A DNA stretch of 13,585 nt, from the UHGV virus genome UHGV-0122598; one strand, given 5' to 3'. Shown piece after piece: positions 1 to 13,320 of the stretch. The DNA is from a virus. Position 1 is the stretch's first letter. Each line of letters opens with the position of its first letter. A program made the translations under genes and the position numbers. The notes under the pieces are model-generated. The model was not told the origin of the DNA, searched no databases, and saw nothing but the letters and a program-made list of their open reading frames with translations.

Positions 1-49
1 TTAGCAAGGTTGTGTACATTTGTACACAATTGCAGACAGAGGAAATGAC

Positions 50-586
50 ATGCGTCGCGCTAACGATCCGCAACGGCGAGAAAAAATTATCCAGGCCACG
101 CTGGAGGCGGTGAAACTTTACGGAATACATGCTGTTACGCACCGCAAAATTGCTACCCTTGCCGGGGTACCGTTGGGATCGATGACCTACTATTTTTCAG
201 GAATTGATGAGTTGTTGCTGGAGGCGTTCAGCAGTTTTACTGAGATTATGTCCCGGCAATATCAGGCATTTTTTAGCGATGTTAGTGATGCTCAAGGCGC
301 ATGCCAGGCTATCACCGATATGATCTACAGCTCACAGGTTGCAACGCCGGATAACATGGAGCTGATGTACCAGCTCTACGCGCTGGCTAGCCGAAAACCG
401 CTATTAAAAACGGTAATGCAAAACTGGATGCAGCGCAGTCAGCAAACGCTCGAACAATGGTTTGAACCCGGAACCGCCCGCGCGCTTGATGCGTTTATTG
501 AGGGGATGACGCTGCATTTTGTCACCGACCGTAAGCCGCTATCGCGCGAGGAGATTTTGAGGATGGTTGAGAGGGTTGCAGGGTAG
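50..586 (+). CDS. rcdA: TetR-family transcriptional regulator, RcdA/YbjK-like (178 aa); the ORF-track start at 20 is an upstream extension
   Basis: ORF 20..586; in-frame ATG at 50 preceded by GAGGAA (37-42); TetR-type HTH segment [19 protein letters not shown]; sequence recognised from memory as E. coli RcdA (YbjK), not database-verified. Confidence 0.75.
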
Positions 587-610
587 TAGATAAATTTTAG
601 ATAACAAAAA

Positions 611-629
611 ACCCATTTATGTAAATGGG
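611..629. terminator. Perfect inverted repeat ACCCATTTA-TG-TAAATGGGT; rho-independent terminator, mainly for the leftward int/moron transcript, possibly bidirectional
   Basis: 9-bp perfect stem; A6 run on the + strand immediately upstream means a U-run follows the hairpin on the minus-strand transcript; lies between the convergent ends of the rcdA-like gene (586) and ORF 732..1217. Confidence 0.6.
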
Positions 630-731
630 TTAGAAATAACAATGAGTTGCAAGACAATCAATAAGTTAGGTTAGTGATAAGGAGTGGCGATTACGGGACA
701 ATGCCAACCGCTGCCGCCACTTTGTCGCCAC

Positions 732-1217
732 TTATACCGGAGATTTGTCATTTCCCCATAAAGGGAGGCTGGTGCTGAAGATTGCACGTTCGCAATCAGT
801 CTCAAGTTTCTTCTGAGCAACCTTTTGTGGGATAAATCGACACTGATTTGTGCGGCGGTCATACTTGATTTTAGCCTTTCCAATCTCAATAGCCCGCCAG
901 CCAATAGTACGATGTATTACAGCATCTATAGTCCTAAGACATCTCAGTTTACCCTGAATGAGGAACTTTTCTTCGGGATTAATTGTGCAGGTGAGTTCTC
1001 CTGAAAAAGTCCAATCACCTTCTGCTTTCTCTAACTGTATATGTATGAAATGTGGATAAGAAGTAGAGATGTCACCTTCATTGCCCCAATCAACTTTTAC
1101 CAAAGACTCATAGTTTTTTGTTTTAGATGATTGATAAATAGGTTGATATGCAGCAGGGATGATTACAACTGCCCCAACTGCAGCCACAACTGAAAAAAAA
1201 TCCGCAATGCCGGACAT
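732..1217 (-). CDS. Hypothetical membrane-anchored protein (161 aa), AT-rich moron downstream of int
   Basis: ORF 732..1217; N-terminal hydrophobic segment FFSVVAAVGAVVIIPAAY (one predicted TM helix) then a polar domain; about 42% GC by eye versus about 50% in flanking genes; co-directional with int, 40 bp downstream of its stop. Confidence 0.55.
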   Translation of the reverse strand: MSGIADFFSVVAAVGAVVIIPAAYQPIYQSSKTKNYESLVKVDWGNEGDISTSYPHFIHIQLEKAEGDWTFSGELTCTINPEEKFLIQGKLRCLRTIDAVIHRTIGWRAIEIGKAKIKYDRRTNQCRFIPQKVAQKKLETDCERAIFSTSLPLWGNDKSPV

Positions 1218-1257
1218 AGCTTTACTCTATTAAGGGAAGGTGCGCTATTTTAACGTG

Positions 1258-2301
1258 TTAGCTGTTTGCTTCAAGGCTCGTTGCTTTAGTGGAAAGTGTG
1301 GCTAATGGATTGAAACGCAGTGCTGTTTCAAGGTGATCAGGGGCAAGATGTGCATAGCGCATAGTCATTTTTATATCGTGGTGGCCCAGGATTTTTTGCA
1401 AAGCAAGAATGTTCCCGCCGGACATCATAAAATGTGCTGCGAACGTATGGCGTAGAACGTGGGTAAGTTGCCCGCGTGGTAGTACGATCGAGGTTCTATC
1501 CATCACGGCTAAAAACTGGAAGTAGCAGTCAGTAAATAATTTGAAGCCGTCTAGGGCAACAATTTCCTCATACAGCTCTTTGCTGATCGGAATGCTGCGG
1601 TTTTTTTTGCCCTTAGTTCTGACAAATGTGATTCGGTATTTCGTGACCTGAGAACGTGTCAGGTTCACAGCTTCGCGCCAACGTGCTCCGGTGCTCAAGC
1701 AGATTTTGACGACAAGAGCGAGCAGGGGGCTTTGGCGTTGACAGTCGAACAGAAGCTCTGTGATTTGTTCATGTGTCAGCCAGGCCATTTCTTTTTCGGC
1801 AATGGTGAATTTACGCATGTTCTCCAGTGGATTTGGTGCTGTCCATTCACCGAGGCGGGCTAACTCGCTAAAGACCCCACTCAGATAGCTTTGCTCCAGA
1901 TTGATAGTTACCGGGCTGGCTCCTTTCTTCCATTTTTCGCTGAAGTAGATTTCACCCGTCAGGCGCTTATCGCGATAGTGCGCGAACATTTTGGATGTTA
2001 GATCGGTGGCGAGGGGATTTCCGAGAGCATCGACCATCAGTATCAACTTGTCGTAAACATGCTCGCCAGCGGTCAGGGATTTGCCGTGCAGTTTGAACCA
2101 GAGTTCAACGATATCCTGTAGAGTTCGACGGTCTACCGATTCACCAAGCCAAGGCTTAGCTTCTGCCTCCTCCATCGTGTGACGCTCAAAAGCTAATGCT
2201 TCGCCTTTGGTAGCGAACTGTTTACGCACGCGACGCCCGCTGCGTCCGGCGGGGTAACATTCGCAAAGCCATTTCCCTGTGGTTAGTTTTCGTACTGCCA
2301 T
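1258..2301 (-). CDS. int: Phage tyrosine integrase (347 aa from the MAVRKL start)
   Basis: Tyrosine-recombinase catalytic signature HVLRHTFA ... MRYAHL near the C-terminus; ATG at 2301 preceded by GGAGGG 6-7 nt upstream; the ORF-track extension to 2457 lacks an RBS and would add 52 residues not expected for P2/186-type integrases. Confidence 0.9.
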   Translation of the reverse strand: MAVRKLTTGKWLCECYPAGRSGRRVRKQFATKGEALAFERHTMEEAEAKPWLGESVDRRTLQDIVELWFKLHGKSLTAGEHVYDKLILMVDALGNPLATDLTSKMFAHYRDKRLTGEIYFSEKWKKGASPVTINLEQSYLSGVFSELARLGEWTAPNPLENMRKFTIAEKEMAWLTHEQITELLFDCQRQSPLLALVVKICLSTGARWREAVNLTRSQVTKYRITFVRTKGKKNRSIPISKELYEEIVALDGFKLFTDCYFQFLAVMDRTSIVLPRGQLTHVLRHTFAAHFMMSGGNILALQKILGHHDIKMTMRYAHLAPDHLETALRFNPLATLSTKATSLEANS

Positions 2302-2489
2302 AAAAAATGCCCTCCAGTAGAGAGCATTTTCACTGTATGTATAACCAGTGTCAATGTATGAAATCCTACGACCATACATCTCACTGAAGCCATAATTAAG
2401 TTGGCTATTCTTTTTGCTATGTGAGCATGTAATTTTTGCGGTTAACCTGCGGCTCATTTTTATTTTAGGCGCAGATATAAAAGCAAAAG

Positions 2490-2681
2490 TTATCGTGAGT
2501 TTTTAGTACAGATTTTTTTGGATTTACTAATAGTTCCATCATTGCAAACAAATTTGCCATCTGAGGTACAGTGAGAAACACCTCCCTTTTTCCCTGAACA
2601 GGGATAATTTCTAGCATAGGTAGTTAGTGGGTTTAATAACAAAGAACATGACAAAACCACAAAAAATACCTTACCAAGCAT
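2490..2681 (-). CDS. Small secreted Cys-rich protein (63 aa) with a predicted signal peptide; moron inside the cI-int lysogeny operon
   Basis: ATG at 2681 preceded by GGGAGGA 6 nt upstream, 16 nt after the cI stop; N-terminus [23 protein letters not shown] is signal-peptide-like; mature part has 4 Cys (C-x8-C ... C-x11-C); ORF-track start at 2708 has no RBS. Confidence 0.55.
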
Positions 2682-2697
2682 AGTTTTCCTCCCGGTA

Positions 2698-3267
2698 CTA
2701 TTTAACATACTTGACTGTTAAACTTATAATTTTACCAATTATTTCAATGTCTTCTATCTTGCATTCGAAGGCTCTGTTTCCACCCTCGACGAAGATTCTT
2801 CCACCGGGTAAACGAGTAATGTCACGGATCGTTATTTCGCCATCAATACTTATTACCCATTTACCATCACGTATATCATCAAATTCCTTATCACAAATAA
2901 ATTCAGAATTATTATCTGTGATTGCAAAAAGATTCTTGAATGCCGACGGTAGAAATTCCCTATCGAAAATATAAAAACCGTCTTCACACAAGGCCCCATC
3001 AGATAATACATATTTAGCAACTTCCATAGTATTTGTATTTGCTGATGCTTGCTTTGAACCATGCCCTGTTGTTAGCCAATTAAGCGAGGTGCCCGTTTCA
3101 AGGGCGCACTGGATTACCCAATCTGCTGGAAAAATATCACGCATATAGCGCGTTGCCATGGTGCTCTTAGAAACACCTAAATGATCACAGAGAGCCTGAC
3201 GGGTACCGAACCCATATGCTTCAACTAAACGTTCTATGGCTTTCTTACCGCCGCTATTGAAATCCAC
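2698..3267 (-). CDS. cI: CI-type prophage repressor, 186 CI-like (about 189 aa from the GTG at 3267; the ORF track extends to a GTG at 3354)
   Basis: N-terminal HTH ([25 protein letters not shown] ... [17 protein letters not shown]) and C-terminal segment [36 protein letters not shown] resembling the 186 CI family as I recall it; GTG at 3267 has GGAGGA just upstream and gives a 186-CI-like length; start choice is uncertain. Confidence 0.75.
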
Positions 3268-3294
3268 AAGTCCTCCAAAGAAATCCAAAATTCG

Positions 3295-3323
3295 TTGACA
3301 GATTCCAAAAGCGATCTTAAAGT
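3295..3323 (+). promoter_or_regulatory. Candidate rightward lytic promoter (pR-like): TTGACA, 17-bp spacer, TAAAGT
   Basis: Perfect -35 hexamer at 3295-3300 and a 4/6 -10 at 3318-3323 with a 17-bp spacer, about 90 bp upstream of the Apl-like start; sits in the cI/apl switch region. Confidence 0.4.
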
Positions 3324-3412
3324 TGAACCAGAAGTGTCCTTTTGGAGCCTTCACTACTAATCACGACAAACAACGGCTCGCCACAAGCCATATCTAGAAG
3401 GAATGTTGCCTT

Positions 3413-3616
3413 ATGACACCTAACATTTCAATTACTCTGAATACACCACATGTCACAATCGAACGTTATAGCGAACTGACTGGCCTTTCTATTGATACGA
3501 TTAACGACATGTTGGCTGATGGCCGACTACCTCGTCATCGTCTTCGTAAAGACAAAAAACGTGAAAAGGTAATGATTAACCTGGCTGCTCTGACTGTTGA
3601 TGCTTTGTCTGCTTAA
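3413..3616 (+). CDS. Small HTH DNA-binding protein (67 aa), Apl/Cox-like excisionase or lytic regulator by position
   Basis: ORF 3413..3616, divergent from cI; AGGAA 10 nt upstream of the ATG; HTH-like segment [22 protein letters not shown] followed by a basic tail. Confidence 0.65.
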
Positions 3617-5481: not shown

Positions 5482-6335
5482 GCACCATCCTGAAATGGGC
5501 GGGAAATAAAACCGCCATTATGTCCGAACTGAAAAAACACCTTCCTGCTGGCCCGCGACTGGTTGAACCTTTCGCGGGTTCCTGTGCTGTGATGATGGAG
5601 ACGGATTACCCCAGCTATCTGGTTGCGGATATTAATCCTGATTTAATCAACCTCTATAAAAAGGTTGCCGCTGATTGTGAATCGTTTATATCTCGCGCCA
5701 GAGTTTTATTTGAGATCGCAAACAGGGAGGTGGCTTATTACAACATAAGGCAGGAGTTTAATTACTCCACTGAAATTACTGATTTCATGAAAGCGGTATA
5801 TTTCCTGTATCTCAATCGTCACGGTTACCGTGGTTTATGTCGCTATAACAAGAGCGGGCATTTCAACATTCCCTACGGTAATTATAAAAATCCGTATTTC
5901 CCTGAAAAAGAAATTCGCGCATTTGCAGAAAAAGCCCAGCGAGCAACGTTTATCTGCGCCAGCTTTGATGAAACGCTGGCGATGTTGAAGGCGGGGGATG
6001 TGGTGTATTGCGATCCGCCGTATGACGGTACGTTTTCCGGCTATCACACTGACGGCTTCACTGAAGATGACCAGTATCACCTGGCATCTGTTCTTGAACA
6101 TCGGTCATCAGAAGGACATCCGGTCATTGTTTCTAACAGTGACACATCCCTGATCCGTTCGCTGTATCGCAATTTTACTCACCACTACATCAAGGCAAAA
6201 CGCAGCATCGGTGTGGCAGCTGGCGAGGGTAAATCAGCAACAGAAATCATTGCTGTTTCCGGGCCGCGCTGCTGGGTGGGATTTGATTATTCGCGTGGCG
6301 TGGATAGTTCTGCCGTGTACGGAGTACGTGCATGA
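5478..6335 (+). CDS. dam: DNA adenine methyltransferase, Dam family (285 aa from the MSTILKW start)
   Basis: N-terminal KWAGNK...EPFAGS (SAM-binding) and catalytic DPPY ([10 protein letters not shown]); ATG at 5478 preceded by GGAGG; ATGA overlap with the upstream stop; track start at 5418 is an extension. Confidence 0.85.
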
Positions 6336-8746
6336 GTCATGCCGATATGAACAACTGCTGCGGCTTTAACGAAGCTGCCGCATCGTTCTCATGGAACAGC
6401 CCGAAAAAGGCCATTAACCCTTATCTGGACCCGGTGGAAGTTGCGCCGGTTTCTACGCTTTCAAACCTGATCACTCTGTACGCTGCCGATAACGAGCAGG
6501 AACAGCTGCGCCGTGAGGCGCTGAGTGATCAGGTCTGGGAGCGTTATTTCTTTAATGAATCCCGTGATCCTGTCCAGCGCGAAATGGAACAGGATAAGCT
6601 CATTAGTCGGGCAAAGCTGGCGCATGAGCAGCAGCGTTTTAATCCGGATATGGTCATTCTGGCGGACGTCAACGCCCAGCCTTCCCATATCAGCAAGCCG
6701 CTGATGCAACGTATTGAATACTTCAGCAGCCTGGGCAGGCCAAAGGCTTATTCCCGCTATTTACGTGAGACGATTAAGCCATGTCTGGAACGACTGGAGC
6801 ATGTACGCGACAGTCAGCTATCTGCATCTTTTCGCTTTATGGCAAGCCATGAAGGGCTGGACGGCCTGCTGATCCTGCCTGAAATGAGTCAGGATCAGGT
6901 GAAACGCCTGTCCACCCTGGTAGCTGCGCATATGAGTATGTGCCTTGATGCCGCTTGTGGCGATTTGTATGCCACCGATGACGTTAAGCCAGAAGAAATC
7001 CGCAATACATGGGAAAGGGTGGCAGCGGAAACCCTGCGTCTGGATGTAATCCCGCCTGCGTTTGAGCAACTCCGTCGGAAAAGAAACCGCCGTAAACCCG
7101 TGCCCTATGAACTCATTCCGGGTTCGCTGGCGCGTATGTTGTGCGCCGACTGGTGGTACCGGAAATTATGGAAAATGCGTTGCGAATGGCGGGAAGAGCA
7201 GTTGCGTGCTGTCTGCCTTGTCAGCAAAAAAGCATCTCCCTATGTCAGCTATGAAGCCGTGTTGCATAAACGTGAGCAGCGCCGTAAGTCGCTGGAGTTT
7301 TTCCGTTCTCATGAACTGGTGAACGAAGACGGCGACACGCTGGACATGGAGGATGTGGTAAACGCCAGCAGCAGCAACCCTGCGCATCGCCGCAATGAGA
7401 TGATGGCCTGTGTTAAAGGTCTGGAGCTTATCGCGGAAATGCGCGGTGACTGCGCCGTTTTCTACACCATCACCTGTCCGTCACGTTTCCATTCCACGCT
7501 AAATAACGGCAGGCCCAACCCGACCTGGACAAATGCGACGGTAAGACAAAGCAGCGATTATCTGGTCGGTATGTTTGCTGCATTTCGTAAGGCGATGCAC
7601 AAAGCCGGGTTGCGCTGGTATGGCGTGCGGGTGGCTGAGCCGCATCATGACGGTACAGTTCACTGGCACCTGTTGTGTTTCATGCGCAAAAAAGACCGCC
7701 GCGCCATTACTGCATTGTTGCGTAAGTTTGCTATCCGTGAAGACCGCGAGGAGCTGGGCAATAACACGGGGCCGCGCTTTAAGTCTGAGCTGATTAACCC
7801 GCGCAAAGGAACGCCGACAAGCTACATAGCGAAATACATCAGTAAGAACATTGACGGGCGTGGTCTGGCTGGCGAGATCAGCAAGGAAACGGGTAAATCT
7901 CTGCGTGATAACGCTGAATACGTGAACGCCTGGGCGTCTTTGCATCGTGTTCAGCAATTCCGCTTCTTTGGCATTCCGGGGCGTCAGGCTTACCGTGAAC
8001 TGCGATTGCTGGCTGGTCAGGCGGCAAGGCAACAGGGGGACAAAAAAGCAGGTGCGCCGGTACTGGATAACCCGCGCCTTGATGCCATCTTGGCTGCTGC
8101 TGATGCTGGTTGTTTTGCCACCTACATCATGAAGCAGGGCGGCGTACTGGTTCCCCGTAAATATCACCTCATCAGAACCGCTTATGAAATCAACGAAGAG
8201 CCGACCGCCTATGGCGATCACGGCATTCGTATTTATGGCATCTGGTCACCCATTGCAGAGGGCAAGATCTGCACTCATGCAGTGAAGTGGAAAATGGTTC
8301 GTAAAGCCGTTGACGTTCAGGAGGCGGCAGCCGACCAGGGCGCTTGCGCCCCTTGGACTCGTGGCAATAACTGTCCCCTTGCTGAAAATTTGAACCAACA
8401 AGGGAAAGACAAATCAGCTGATGGGGATACCAGAACGGACATTACCCACATGGATGACAAGGAGTTGCACGATTACCTGCACAGTATGAACAAAAAAGAG
8501 CGCCGGGAACTGGCTGCAAGGTTACGCCTGGTGAAACCGAAACGGCGTAGAGACTACAAACAGCGAATTACAGACCATCAACGACAGCAGCTCGTCTATG
8601 AACTGAAGTCCAGAGGATTTGATGGCAGCGAGAAAGAGGTCGATTTACTCCTTCGCGGCGGCAGTATTCCGTCAGGAGCAGGCCTGCGTGTCTTCTATCG
8701 GAACCAGCGTTTGCAGGAAGATGATAAGTGGCGGAACCTGTATTAA
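6332..8746 (+). CDS. A: Phage replication initiation protein, P2/186 gene A family (rolling-circle endonuclease, 804 aa)
   Basis: Large ORF starting with an ATGA overlap on the dam stop; GGAG 7 nt upstream; HUH-like motif VHWHLL and YIAKYISK segment typical of gpA-type replication endonucleases (family knowledge). Confidence 0.85.
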
Positions 8747-9714: not shown

Positions 9715-10326
9715 ATGGATTTAGTCTTTAAAGTTCTGGCTTCGTTGGGTGGGGTGTCTTTTGTTGCATCTGGCATATTTGTTTGGATCGGGAAAGTTTA
9801 TTTAGAAAGATATAAGTCGCGGCTAAACAAAGATATTGCTGAATTTCAATCACAACTGAGTGCAACTAATGAAAGAATAAAGGCTAAGTTAGACAATTCT
9901 GTTTATGTAACGAAAGCGTATTTTGATAAGGAGTTATCAGCATATAGTCTCATTTGGAATTCGATGTTTGAAACCAGAGAAAGCGTGCTTAAGCTGAGGC
10001 CTGCGCTGGATCATGTTGACCCCAACGAACCATTTGAAGAGAGAAAATTTAGAAGGTTGAAAGTTTTTTTTGATGCATTTAACACTTTTGTTACAAGTGT
10101 TGAATCTAACAAACCGTTCATCTCACCAGAGGTTTATATAATCTTGGACCGTTTCCGGAAGGAATGCCTTTCAGAGTCAATATCGTTTAAGCATAGCGAT
10201 CCAGAATTTGACGGGCAAAATTATTGGAAAGAGGCGGAGTTGAACCGTACAACCATCACCAAGCTTTTTGATGAGACGTGTGATGCAATTCGAGACAGGA
10301 TGCACACATTAACTGTGGTTACGTAG
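9715..10326 (+). CDS. Hypothetical single-pass membrane protein (203 aa): N-terminal TM helix plus a helical cytoplasmic domain
   Basis: ORF 9715..10326; GGTGGGGG upstream of the ATG; N-terminal LVFKVLASLGGVSFVASGIFVWIG is a predicted TM helix; about 40% GC by eye; own candidate promoter and downstream terminator. Confidence 0.6.
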   Translation: MDLVFKVLASLGGVSFVASGIFVWIGKVYLERYKSRLNKDIAEFQSQLSATNERIKAKLDNSVYVTKAYFDKELSAYSLIWNSMFETRESVLKLRPALDHVDPNEPFEERKFRRLKVFFDAFNTFVTSVESNKPFISPEVYIILDRFRKECLSESISFKHSDPEFDGQNYWKEAELNRTTITKLFDETCDAIRDRMHTLTVVT

Positions 10327-10592: not shown

Positions 10593-11672
10593 GTGGCGTT
10601 ATCAGATGCGTTAATTACAGTAAATCAAGCCGAACGGGGCGGTGAAAACGCGTTGAGAGGCTTTTCATATCAAGCCTCTTGGGGGATAAATTATTTACTT
10701 GAGAAACAAAAAGAAAAGGAGAAATATTTATTTCTATTTGAATATCATGACGATATTCTTGTATTGAATTCATCTGTTTCTCCGACTAGTGCTGAGTTTA
10801 TCCAAGTTAAAACAAAAAAAGATGGTAAATGGACACTCGCAGCAATAGTGAACGCAACAAAAGCTAAACCTAAATCATTTGTTGCAAAACTATATGACCA
10901 TTTCTATCAATTCGTTGGTCACGAAATTTATATGGTTCTGTTATCGAATGCTGGATTCGATTTCTTAAATGATAATAACGAAAAAGGTAGTGATCTTAAT
11001 AATGAGCATAAGGAAATTATAATTAGTAAGGTTCAAGAGCAGCTAAATACTAAAAAAGAAGTTCCTCTTGATAAAATAAAATTTAAAACATCTGATCTTA
11101 GTTTGTTAGATCCTAACTCACATTTATACGGGAAAGTTGCAGTTTTTTTGAATTCTTACTTTGGGGATGATCATGGTATTAATTCAACAGCATTCACTAA
11201 ATTATTAATCAATAAGTGTAATGAGAAGGTTAGTGTTGCTTCTAGTGATATCAAAACTTTTGAAGATTTAGTACTAAAGAAAGGTATATCTTCAGAATTT
11301 GTAACTGATTTATTATCTGGACTCATTGCAAGCATAAAAATAACGCCAAAATGGGAACAGGTTTGTATGTTGCTTGGTACTTTCTCAGATCCTTATGAGG
11401 GGATTAAATTACAATCAGTTTTTACACGCATATCAATAAAAGTGCTCAATGTCAATTCAATATACTATCTTTATTTTCTGGAATTTCAATCGGCTCTAAA
11501 GAGTATAGAGCATTATCGTGAGATACCTGTTCGAGACCTCTTCTTTACACTCGAAAAAACAATTGCAGCGGGGGACGGGGATTTCTCTTTATTAAATCAA
11601 GAAGAGAAATTTATGATTGCTATATATGCAATTATAAAGTTGACTTTTGAGGATGTTTCTTATGAAGAATAA
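10593..11672 (+). CDS. Candidate PD-(D/E)xK-type nuclease effector (359 aa), Cap4/LmuA-like N-terminal domain plus an uncharacterised C-terminal domain
   Basis: ORF 10593..11672 (GTG start, AGGGA upstream); N-terminal LFLFEYHDDILVL ... EFIQVKTKK fits a hhD ... (E/Q)xK restriction-endonuclease-like core; about 30% GC by eye; last 11 nt overlap the start of the downstream ATPase gene. Confidence 0.6.
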   Translation: MALSDALITVNQAERGGENALRGFSYQASWGINYLLEKQKEKEKYLFLFEYHDDILVLNSSVSPTSAEFIQVKTKKDGKWTLAAIVNATKAKPKSFVAKLYDHFYQFVGHEIYMVLLSNAGFDFLNDNNEKGSDLNNEHKEIIISKVQEQLNTKKEVPLDKIKFKTSDLSLLDPNSHLYGKVAVFLNSYFGDDHGINSTAFTKLLINKCNEKVSVASSDIKTFEDLVLKKGISSEFVTDLLSGLIASIKITPKWEQVCMLLGTFSDPYEGIKLQSVFTRISIKVLNVNSIYYLYFLEFQSALKSIEHYREIPVRDLFFTLEKTIAAGDGDFSLLNQEEKFMIAIYAIIKLTFEDVSYEE

Positions 11673-13320
11673 CGTTAAATTTAAAAATATAAAAATACTC
11701 TCATTAAGAGACAGAAAAGCTTTTTCTTATGAGTTTTCAGAAGGGGTTAACTTCATATATGGTACAAATGATGTTGGTAAATCAAGCCTGATTAAAAGTC
11801 TTTATTACACATTAGGTGGAGATTTAAGGCTTGATGATGCTTGGAAATCAGATGATATAGTTACACTGGTGGAAATTAATAACGGGGAAAATGATTTTAT
11901 TTTTTTGCGTTATAAAAAGATTATTGGTGTCTTTGATTTGAAGAATGATGATCTAGTCGTGTATAACACGATTTCGTCATTAGCATCTCGTGTTTCAAAT
12001 ATATTTGGTTTTAAACTGGAATTACATAATAAATATACGGGTGCTACGACTCAGGCAAACCCTGCTTGTTTGTTTGCCCCATTCTTTATTGATCAGGATG
12101 AAGGATGGAAAGCGGTGATAAATTCTTTCGAAAACATGAGTATGTACTCAGAATGGCAAAAAAACATTCTTTACTATCACTCTGGAATTAAGCCAAAGGA
12201 ATATTATACAGTTCAAGGGAAAATCAAAGAAATTAAAGTTAAAATTTCAGAGTTAGATGGTTTTGTTAAGGTTCTAAAAAGAAGCAAAAGTAAGATTGAT
12301 GAATCTTTTGGCGTGGTTTTATTTGATGTTGATTTGGATTTTTATAAATCAAAGTTGGAACGTATATTAAATGAATATTCTAATTTAAATTTAGTTCAGA
12401 CAGAATATAGATTAAATCTTTTGAGGTTATATTCTAGGAAGAATTTCCTTGAGAGTGAACTCAAAGAGATAACTGCGATTATTGATAATGAATTTGAGAT
12501 TTCGAATTTTCGAGATGATAATGTTGCTTATTCAGTAAATGAATATAATTATATAAACCATAGAGATGAAATGCTCAAAAACATTGCTGTTCTTGCAGAT
12601 GAGAAAAGCAAGATTGAGGAAAATATTCCTAAATTGAATCAAAAGCTAGAAGAGTCAAGGGCTGCTTCAGAGGCGTTGCAGGCGCTGATTTTAGAAACTC
12701 AATCGGAAATAACGCTTCATGATGTTATTAAATCTGCCGCATACCATGAAATTGAATCTACTTTTATTTCACAGTTAGATGAGTTATTCGTTGAGATTGG
12801 TCGAAAAGAAGGCGAGTTGACAGAATTACAAGAAGAATTAGAAGTATACAATGATAAGAAAAGAACTGTTAAAATAAATGACTGTTTCAAAGAGTATTTC
12901 GCTAAAGCTCTTAAAGAGCTTGGTGTCGAAAATACAAAGGTAGGTGGCCTTAGTAGTTATAATAATATTACTAAGGGTAAGACTGGTAGTCGAGGTCCTC
13001 GAGGTATATTTGCATTTCACTACGCGCTGCTTAGTGTTATGAAAAGCAACTCTTCAGTTGAGAATATGCCTATAGTAATAGACTCTCCAAAGCAACAAGA
13101 TTTGGATCCAGAGCATACGCATAAGCTTATAAAACTATGCTTGGATGGGTTTTCCCTTACAAATCAGATTATTATTGGAACTGTTGGTTATGAGAGTTTC
13201 ATGGATGGTTTTAATAGCATCAAACTTGAAAATAAATATCATCTTTTAAATGATGAACATTATGATAATGTTTATTCTCAATTAATGCCATTGTTTGAAC
13301 GGGTGATACTTTCAAGATGA
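11662..13320 (+). CDS. SMC/ABC-type coiled-coil ATPase (552 aa from the MKNNVKF start), LmuB-like
   Basis: ATG at 11662 with GAGGA 9 nt upstream; Walker A GTNDVGKSS at residues 34-42; long E/K/L-rich coiled-coil middle; Walker-B-like MPIVIDSP, D-loop-like DLD and His near the C-terminus; the track start at 11647 is a 5-codon extension. Confidence 0.75.
   Translation: MKNNVKFKNIKILSLRDRKAFSYEFSEGVNFIYGTNDVGKSSLIKSLYYTLGGDLRLDDAWKSDDIVTLVEINNGENDFIFLRYKKIIGVFDLKNDDLVVYNTISSLASRVSNIFGFKLELHNKYTGATTQANPACLFAPFFIDQDEGWKAVINSFENMSMYSEWQKNILYYHSGIKPKEYYTVQGKIKEIKVKISELDGFVKVLKRSKSKIDESFGVVLFDVDLDFYKSKLERILNEYSNLNLVQTEYRLNLLRLYSRKNFLESELKEITAIIDNEFEISNFRDDNVAYSVNEYNYINHRDEMLKNIAVLADEKSKIEENIPKLNQKLEESRAASEALQALILETQSEITLHDVIKSAAYHEIESTFISQLDELFVEIGRKEGELTELQEELEVYNDKKRTVKINDCFKEYFAKALKELGVENTKVGGLSSYNNITKGKTGSRGPRGIFAFHYALLSVMKSNSSVENMPIVIDSPKQQDLDPEHTHKLIKLCLDGFSLTNQIIIGTVGYESFMDGFNSIKLENKYHLLNDEHYDNVYSQLMPLFERVILSR

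Follow-up and report, generated by a model that had tools for sequence, protein, structure and literature searches.

What kind of gene lies between the integrase and the attachment (att) site of a P2/186-like prophage, and what might it do for the lysogen that carries it? The question is raised by UHGV virus genome UHGV-0122598, from which we analysed a stretch of 13,585 nucleotides (the window) that forms the left part of such a prophage. Just downstream of the integrase gene, int, the window holds an open reading frame (ORF) of 161 codons, ORF161, which a sequence-only reading had put forward as a candidate lysogeny moron. We find it very probable that ORF161 is a real, phage-borne gene of a variable hotspot, and that its product combines a single transmembrane (TM) helix with a barrel. 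For its function we favour an anti-phage role exerted at the membrane of the lysogen, a reading to which we assign a probability of roughly 0.4.

Position, composition and selection

The gene and its immediate surroundings are laid out as follows.

732–1217, minus strand: ORF161 coding sequence, 161 amino acids plus stop, ATG start; predicted membrane-tethered β-barrel protein of an unannotated family
1258–2301, minus strand: P2/186-type tyrosine integrase, 347 amino acids as in RefSeq relatives, with the Pfam domains Int_N and Phage_integrase
734–1306: cassette of 573 bp, made up of ORF161, the 40-bp spacer and the replacement last codons of int, which encode the tail STKATSLEANS followed by a stop
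691–733, minus strand: remnant of the ancestral int 3′ end (SGDKVAAAVGIVP followed by a stop), untranslated, directly past the ORF161 stop and part of the shared attP arm
617–733: attP arm of phage origin that joins the att core to the cassette, common to relatives that lack ORF161 and to the same phage at another site
590–616: attL core region, where about 27 bp of the rybB terminator and tail are imperfectly duplicated

The ORF161 start codon (1215–1217) and the int stop codon TAA (1258–1260) lie on the same strand with exactly 40 bp between them, and the sequence-only reading, which had described a co-directional 161-codon ORF at 732–1217 that distance past the integrase stop, gave coordinates that match. 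Its description of one N-terminal TM helix followed by a polar remainder agrees with the single hydrophobic segment at residues 4–24, the rest being polar; the polar domain is predicted to be an eight-stranded β-barrel that probably faces the cytoplasm. The gene is also, as that reading held, more AT-rich than the prophage core, with a G+C content of 0.412 vs 0.495 for int and 0.532 for repA. The G+C content of the whole window is itself low (0.438) because the window contains further AT-rich cargo. The Shine–Dalgarno sequence of ORF161 is weak.

Among close homologues of ORF161, the pairwise ratio of non-synonymous to synonymous divergence (dN/dS) is about 0.1, with dS saturated, a value that points to purifying selection. 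Their dN of 0.23–0.35 compares with 0.05–0.07 in the adjacent int, corresponding to non-synonymous change that is 3–5 times faster. ORF161 is more than a chance frame, because homologues at 22–68% identity retain its architecture and motifs.

Insertion within the 3′ end of int

The junctions of the cassette are visible at base-pair resolution when the window is aligned with a relative that occupies the same rybB site and lacks ORF161 (L003). Window positions 1–733 align with this locus at 98% identity and positions 1307–3600 at 84%, and the intervening 573 bp (734–1306) correspond to just 15 bp. The two integrases are collinear through the residues RFNPLATL, after which the window integrase continues into the new tail STKATSLEANS. 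The alignment thus places the ORF161 cassette within the 3′ end of int, with the last int codons rewritten. The shared attP arm probably explains both why the old tail was retained as a remnant and why insertions land exactly there.

To survey the slot, we took an evenly spaced sample of the ranking of 1125 hits in complete Escherichia coli genomes and measured the distance between two conserved flanks, which falls into discrete values.

1127 bp: empty slot (L003), about two thirds of the sample
1480 bp: 89-amino-acid gene (L018), 8 of 35 sample rows
1607 bp: 110-amino-acid gene (L019, including E. coli B), 4 of 35 sample rows
1839 bp: 240-amino-acid gene (L020), 1 of 35 sample rows
1685 bp: ORF161 (the window), 6 genomes in total

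ORF161 and the genes of 89, 110 and 240 amino acids are mutually unrelated, and each brings its own short int tail. The int–att slot is already known as a kind of cargo site: in P2-like prophages this interval is reported to be a minor defence hotspot that holds 3% of P2 systems (PMC13586616, NAR 2026). What the alignments newly indicate here is the insertion point inside the int 3′ end together with the retained tail remnant. ORF161 itself is not described in PMC13586616, and its RefSeq accession, WP_000014148, is absent from the searchable literature.

The other slot genes show features of their own. The AT-rich 240-amino-acid protein (L020 375–1097, NZ_CM129861) has an RNSCAH (R-x4-H) motif with weak matches to HEPN_RiboL-PSP and Abi_2; its gene reads in frame into the old int-tail remnant and ends in SGDKVAAAVGITP, the ancestral integrase C terminus. 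No significant domain was found in the 110-amino-acid protein (L019 450–782, from the P2-like prophage of E. coli B, NZ_CP115178) or in the 89-amino-acid protein (L018 421–690).

Association with the phage

We located the att boundaries by comparison with K-12 and with a complete genome. In K-12, the small RNA gene rybB follows the host regulator gene rcdA on the opposite strand, and homology between the window and K-12 stops at position 616, within the terminator of rybB; this terminator, beside rcdA, is where the prophage is integrated. In NZ_CP027366, a complete genome whose left end is near-identical to that of the window, the prophage spans int to ogr, and at its far end an intact rybB is rebuilt through the imperfect 27-bp duplication that forms the att core. 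With these att boundaries, ORF161 falls within the element, some 115 bp away from the att core. The regions compared were window 590–631, the K-12 locus at L017 2464–2558 and attR at L024 36679–36760. A scan of the window with Rfam gave no family at the gathering score, RybB included, because this end of the prophage keeps only the terminator tail of rybB.

The empty K-12 site (rybB–rcdA) carries no ORF161. One of the six carriers, NZ_CP027440 (L002), has the same phage end from window position 613 onward in a porin pseudogene near hchA, and the presence of this end with ORF161 at a second chromosomal site means that the gene travels with the phage. There, the phage end with ORF161 occupies L002 2028–3005, and its junction and the rybB junction have no more than about 4 bp (CCAT) in common, which suggests either integration at a secondary site of low homology or a rearrangement.

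Within the 5426 complete E. coli genomes, 1125 have a related int and attP arm, and six of these carry ORF161. The carriers differ among themselves in the interval between CI and int and in the main hotspot; the near-identical relative NZ_CP027366 retains ORF161 while its main GpA–GpQ hotspot has been exchanged. In an assembly collection, the exact E. coli ORF161 protein is indexed in 1192 blocks, and among the matches listed (10), all 10 lie between this int and rcdA.

The sequence-only reading had named two findings that would count against a moron, namely conservation as a core gene and a chromosomal gene present without the prophage. Core-gene status is rejected by the count of 6 carriers in 1125 genomes, the slot being otherwise empty or filled with other genes, and a chromosomal origin by the empty K-12 site together with the att boundaries and the second insertion site. 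The candidate moron of that reading is thus supported, as comparison with related prophages reveals variable content at this position.

Protein family and predicted structure

In a search of 5.8 billion proteins we obtained four close ORF161 clusters, and an exhaustive phmmer search of 1.84 billion representatives returned only four proteins at E ≤ 1e-3. With two profile iterations the family grew to some 17 clusters, with members in E. coli, Pantoea, Acinetobacter and metagenomes. All members are 136–182 amino acids long with a single N-terminal hydrophobic helix, and length, architecture and motifs are kept at 22–68% identity in Enterobacterales, in Acinetobacter and in viral contigs; an internal deletion occurs in cluster P0002 and a truncation in cluster P0004. 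Residues W44, N46, E47, G48, G73 and G106 are invariant in the family, and D49, I50, W107, R108 and W154 are nearly so. In the window, the elements of the protein map as follows.

1146–1208, minus strand: TM segment IADFFSVVAAVGAVVIIPAAY, codons 4–24, the sole hydrophobic segment, mean Kyte–Doolittle score 2.25
747–1094, minus strand: predicted eight-stranded up-and-down β-barrel, codons 42–157, from the AlphaFold2 model
1068–1088, minus strand: signature WGNEGDI (W-x-NEGD-I), codons 44–50, where the long loop that links strands 1 and 2 begins
894–908, minus strand: second conserved motif TIGWR, codons 104–108, in the turn between strands 5 and 6

The family defined by the W-x-NEGD-I signature and a predicted tethered barrel is new and is named in no database. 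A tblastn search of ORF161 against 50,697 GenBank phage records gave no match, and a sequence-profile search of the PDB returned noise only (Vpu at E 0.18). Matches of three family members to Hol_Tox were dismissed as TM-only noise.

The single-sequence AlphaFold2 model was poor, with a predicted local distance difference test (pLDDT) score of 45, and we used the model built from an alignment of 15 sequences instead, for which the mean pLDDT is 84 and the predicted template modelling score (pTM) 0.71; four of the five models reach a pLDDT of at least 80. The model has one continuous helix (residues 2–40), eight strands (42–45, 58–64, 70–77, 80–91, 96–105, 108–120, 125–133 and 151–157) and a short helix at 141–146. 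Foldseek matches it best to lipocalin-like barrels and to three unnamed viral proteins of comparable size, and the predicted fold is a generic calycin-like barrel. Like the calycin-type barrels (avidins, lipocalins and nitrophorins), the predicted ORF161 barrel has eight strands. It differs from them in that those proteins are secreted or periplasmic, whereas ORF161 is membrane-tethered and predicted to be cytoplasmic; identities are 4–12%, with no sequence similarity.

Lysine or arginine residues (2–7) occur just after the TM helix in 15 of 15 members, with mostly 0–1 before it (three in P0018). By the positive-inside rule, this pattern predicts an N-out/C-in topology with a few N-terminal residues in the periplasm and the barrel in the cytoplasm. 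In a meander barrel, odd-numbered loops share one end, opposite the even-numbered loops and the two termini. With this strand order, the NEGD loop (loop 1, residues 46–57) would lie at the same end as the GW(R) turn (loop 5), and the conserved residues are predicted to cluster at the membrane-distal mouth of the barrel.

Expression signals

Two elements that bear on transcription flank the gene.

1247–1274, minus strand: promoter-like site TTGAAG-16 nt-TAAAAT, with the −35 element in the last int codons and the −10 element just past the int stop
600–631, minus strand: intrinsic-terminator-like hairpin, a 9-bp stem followed by a T-run (−9.4 kcal/mol, z −2.65)

When we aligned the int tail and spacer of four cassettes, whose ORFs are 57–78% identical, TTGAA and TTAAAAT were invariant while the surrounding bases varied, and TTGAA was retained even where the overlapping int codons shift from Leu-Glu to Ile-Glu. 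The match to a σ70 consensus would count for little by itself; from this pattern of conservation, the cassette seems to carry its own σ70-like promoter, with the −35 element embedded in the replacement int tail. With such a candidate promoter, ORF161 would not depend solely on co-transcription with int. No terminator was found between int and ORF161, and read-through into ORF161 from the CI–int transcript is possible; in phages 186 and P2, repressor and int are co-transcribed in lysogens. Downstream of the two genes, the only strong terminator is the hairpin at 600–631. Its stem (AACCCATTTA/TAAATGGGTT) is supplied by the phage and its T-run comes from the host rybB terminator, a hybrid formed at attL.

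A moron in the sense of Hendrix is an extra gene with its own promoter and terminator and a deviant composition that is present in only some relatives. ORF161 resembles this type in being a discrete insertion with precise junctions, its flanks 84–98% identical to L003, in having a G+C content below that of the flanking core genes and in its presence in some relatives only; its conserved hexamers and the hairpin downstream are a putative promoter and terminator. The cassette differs in that it is not intergenic, the last int codons being overwritten and the old tail left in the attP arm, and in that its candidate terminator is a phage/host hybrid created by integration.

Genomic context of homologues

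The window-clade homologues with enough flanking sequence (L004, L005 and L021) all lie 40–43 bp past a P2-type int with an alternative tail. In seven IMG/VR contigs from a deeply diverged P2/186-like clade, the homologues are 22–28% identical to ORF161 and the integrase is 47% identical to that of the window; hhalign connects these homologues to the ORF161 family with a probability of 98.5% (E 3e-15). In each of the seven contigs, the homologue adjoins or overlaps the stop codon of int, and several lie at the end of a viral contig. The position directly after int thus appears long-standing in two diverged P2-like clades (4 window-clade and 7 IMG/VR loci), which is a new observation.

More distant homologues occur elsewhere. 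In Pantoea and in a metagenome, they lie in an accessory region beside the terminase of another prophage type; others are found in chromosomal islands beside HEPN, HipA, PAAR, VapBC, RES or RelA_SpoT genes, and one sits between uricase-pathway and urease genes. These neighbourhoods, the prophage accessory regions included, are of the conflict type and speak for a defence role. No partner gene is conserved across the homologue neighbourhoods: the candidates considered, genes of 191 and 194 amino acids upstream in the Pantoea-type prophages, a 249-amino-acid gene downstream in Acinetobacter and a 160-amino-acid TM protein in L022, show no relationship among themselves or with ORF161, and were rejected. 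Divergently adjacent to the homologue P0006 in L023 is a gene (2–736, minus strand) for a 245-amino-acid protein with RelA_SpoT as its only domain (E 3e-19), a layout shared with small alarmone-synthetase toxins and CapRel-type defence proteins.

Proposed function and alternatives

The location of ORF161 has several features in common with cargo of the P2 int–att defence hotspot. The gene lies between int (1258–2301) and the att core (~590–616), inside the att-delimited element; the slot content varies among relatives, one filler being HEPN-like; and the same window has a Lamassu system in the main GpA–GpQ hotspot. It differs in that PADLOC does not recognise ORF161, the hotspot having been reported statistically (PMC13586616). 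The main hotspots were first described in PMC9122126, and in the main P4 hotspot 6 of 8 previously untested loci of unknown function gave phage resistance (PMC13586616).

We tentatively propose that ORF161 has an anti-phage, membrane-acting function in the lysogen. It would be expressed there from its own promoter, by read-through from the CI–int transcript, or both, and the protein would be laid out with a very short periplasmic N terminus, one TM helix, a helical linker and a cytoplasmic barrel. The mouth of the barrel might bind a small ligand or a phage protein; binding would change the association of the TM helices, and the inner membrane would be perturbed. The lysogen could thereby be shielded from other phages by abortive-infection or exclusion logic, as in the TM and β-barrel effectors Cap15 and OptE. 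As a sensor–effector scheme, in which binding at the barrel mouth alters helix association and disturbs the membrane, this mechanism is drawn by analogy; it is the scheme that we favour, although its own probability is low. Bolder still, and a speculation to which we give little weight, is that the family comprises stand-alone, single-pass TM and barrel abortive-infection effectors whose cytoplasmic barrel would directly sense a phage product, or eavesdrop on a nucleotide or other small-molecule signal made elsewhere in the cell, and would then set off disruption of the membrane with no dedicated cyclase; they would be a minimal one-gene counterpart of Cap15/OptE long linked to int.

Cap15 and OptE consist of TM elements fused to a cytoplasmic nucleotide-binding barrel, and their growth-inhibiting form is thought to be oligomeric (PMC12657218). 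Membership of ORF161 in their family, S-2TMβ, was rejected on account of its one TM helix, the lack of a profile match and the lack of a cyclase partner; the S_2TMBeta Pfam profile gave no hit for any of 15 members at E ≤ 5. The fold match of ORF161 to Cap15/OptE is no better than that to avidins, lipocalins and designed barrels.

A number of observations weigh against an anti-phage role. Cap15 of CBASS and OptE of Panoptes have two TM helices, whereas ORF161 and each of the 15 members have one, and no CD-NTase, SMODS or mCpol cyclase was found among the window genes or in the homologue neighbourhoods. Foldseek searches of the PDB and BFVD returned nothing at E < 1e-3, with Cap15 outside the top 50, and designed barrels, avidins and lipocalins outscore Cap15 in the fold comparison with ORF161. 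The charge bias of the window protein is weak (2 lysine or arginine residues vs 0), and its topology is given by the positive-inside rule only. The sequence-only reading recognised no domain, in agreement with our searches of Pfam (E ≤ 0.01 for the window protein), PHROGs, PADLOC and NCBIfam, in which neither ORF161 nor the family members had a match; neither an experiment nor a sequence match ties these proteins to any defence system. As evidence for defence, a hotspot location is no more than statistical, and machine-learning methods scored 15–32% of unknown P2 proteins as defence-associated (PMC13586616). Finally, strict adjacency to int across a deep divergence could signal a function linked to int or to the prophage end.

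This last point is the core of one of the competing explanations, that ORF161 serves the phage's own cycle in integration or excision, in the maintenance of lysogeny or in the timing of induction. The gene does follow int directly in both diverged clades (4 and 7 loci, with integrases 47% identical), and the IMG/VR copies abut or overlap the int stop. Yet ORF161 is missing from more than 99% of the E. coli prophages that have this int type and att site, a membrane tether is unexpected in a recombination factor, and distant homologues occur away from any integrase, so we regard such a role as quite improbable. A spurious or decaying non-functional ORF is the explanation to which we give the least credence. 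The absence of annotation anywhere, the weak Shine–Dalgarno sequence, the internal deletion in P0002 and the truncation of P0004 would fit it; it is opposed by the length, architecture and motifs kept at 22–68% identity, the dN/dS of ~0.1, the confident AlphaFold2 fold from just 15 sequences and the exact protein in 1192 blocks of the assembly collection.

Two further alternatives concern the lysogen. In non-abortive superinfection exclusion, genome entry would be blocked at the inner membrane, for instance if the protein bound, from the cytoplasmic side, a membrane protein that serves DNA translocation, and the cell would be neither killed nor depolarised. Small inner-membrane proteins encoded at prophage ends are classically of the exclusion type, as with T4 Imm, P22 SieA and HK97 gp15. 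ORF161 appears to be one such small protein, probably expressed in the lysogen, and its slot is variable, as expected of genes in conflict. The predicted topology, however, places almost all of the protein on the cytoplasmic side, at a distance from the incoming complex of tail or tape measure; there is no similarity to any PHROG, known superinfection-exclusion (Sie) proteins included, and no similarity of ORF161 to known Sie-, Imm- or Cor-type exclusion families in PHROGs or in tblastn of the 50,697 GenBank phages; and homologues also occur in chromosomal toxin or defence islands that contain no phage. We consider exclusion of this kind unlikely, and rank behind it, as likewise doubtful, a lysogenic conversion or host benefit unrelated to phages, in which the calycin-like barrel would bind a hydrophobic or small ligand at the membrane, such as a lipid or isoprenoid carrier, a toxin or a metabolite, or the protein would be an orphan immunity factor against membrane-targeting toxins. 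A PAAR gene neighbours one homologue, but not those at other Acinetobacter loci; no partner gene is conserved, and the fold likeness is generic. The int–att slot and the other neighbourhoods, moreover, are enriched in genes of phage conflict rather than of metabolism.

An anti-phage function at the membrane thus stays our preferred reading, and under it ORF161 is a concrete single-gene candidate for defence or exclusion, contained in 573 bp with its own putative promoter. Should the barrel act at the membrane, the TM and β-barrel logic of CBASS and Panoptes would extend to a cyclase-free, single-pass form; should the protein be inactive against phages, ORF161 would be one further uncharacterised prophage moron. 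For the P2-like phages, the locus documents the uptake of int–att cargo at base-pair resolution, with insertion after the codons for ATL, a new int tail and the old tail in the attP arm.

Prophage organization and other cargo

The remainder of the window comprises the following features.

50–586, plus strand: rcdA, a host regulator gene that flanks the prophage
2698–3354, minus strand: CI repressor
Further prophage genes: an Apl/Cox-sized ORF, CII, Fil, Dam methylase and replication endonuclease, 6332–8746
Also present: a DinI-like protein, and AT-rich cargo that extends as far as the portal gene and has Lamassu LmuA/LmuB in it

The int frame is open to position 2457, which adds 52 codons (2302–2457, minus strand) for 399 vs 347 amino acids, and some relatives are annotated with 373.

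The Lamassu system (10593–13320, plus strand) lies in the AT-rich GpA–GpQ main hotspot, where the G+C content is about 0.30. The system comprises LmuA, with a Cap4-nuclease domain (PADLOC E 4e-143), and the SMC-like ATPase LmuB (E 8.6e-254). In NZ_CP027366, whose left end is 99.8% identical, an ATP-binding protein, SIR2, a hypothetical protein and a HIRAN-domain protein take the place of Lamassu. Just upstream of Lamassu is an AT-rich ORF of 203 codons (9715–10326, plus strand) with an N-terminal hydrophobic helix; its product, a second single-TM accessory protein, has a full-length match to PHROG 26391, of unknown function, and no hit in Pfam, PADLOC or NCBIfam.

The interval between CI and int is also variable. 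In the window, it encodes a small secreted protein of the YdcA family (2490–2708, minus strand; NCBIfam PRK10040, E 8e-34). Other ORF161 carriers (L035, L040 and L042 1261–2844) have a 527-amino-acid protein without Pfam hits there, and in the IMG/VR contig L025 three genes (369, 105 and 155 amino acids) are inserted between CI and int.

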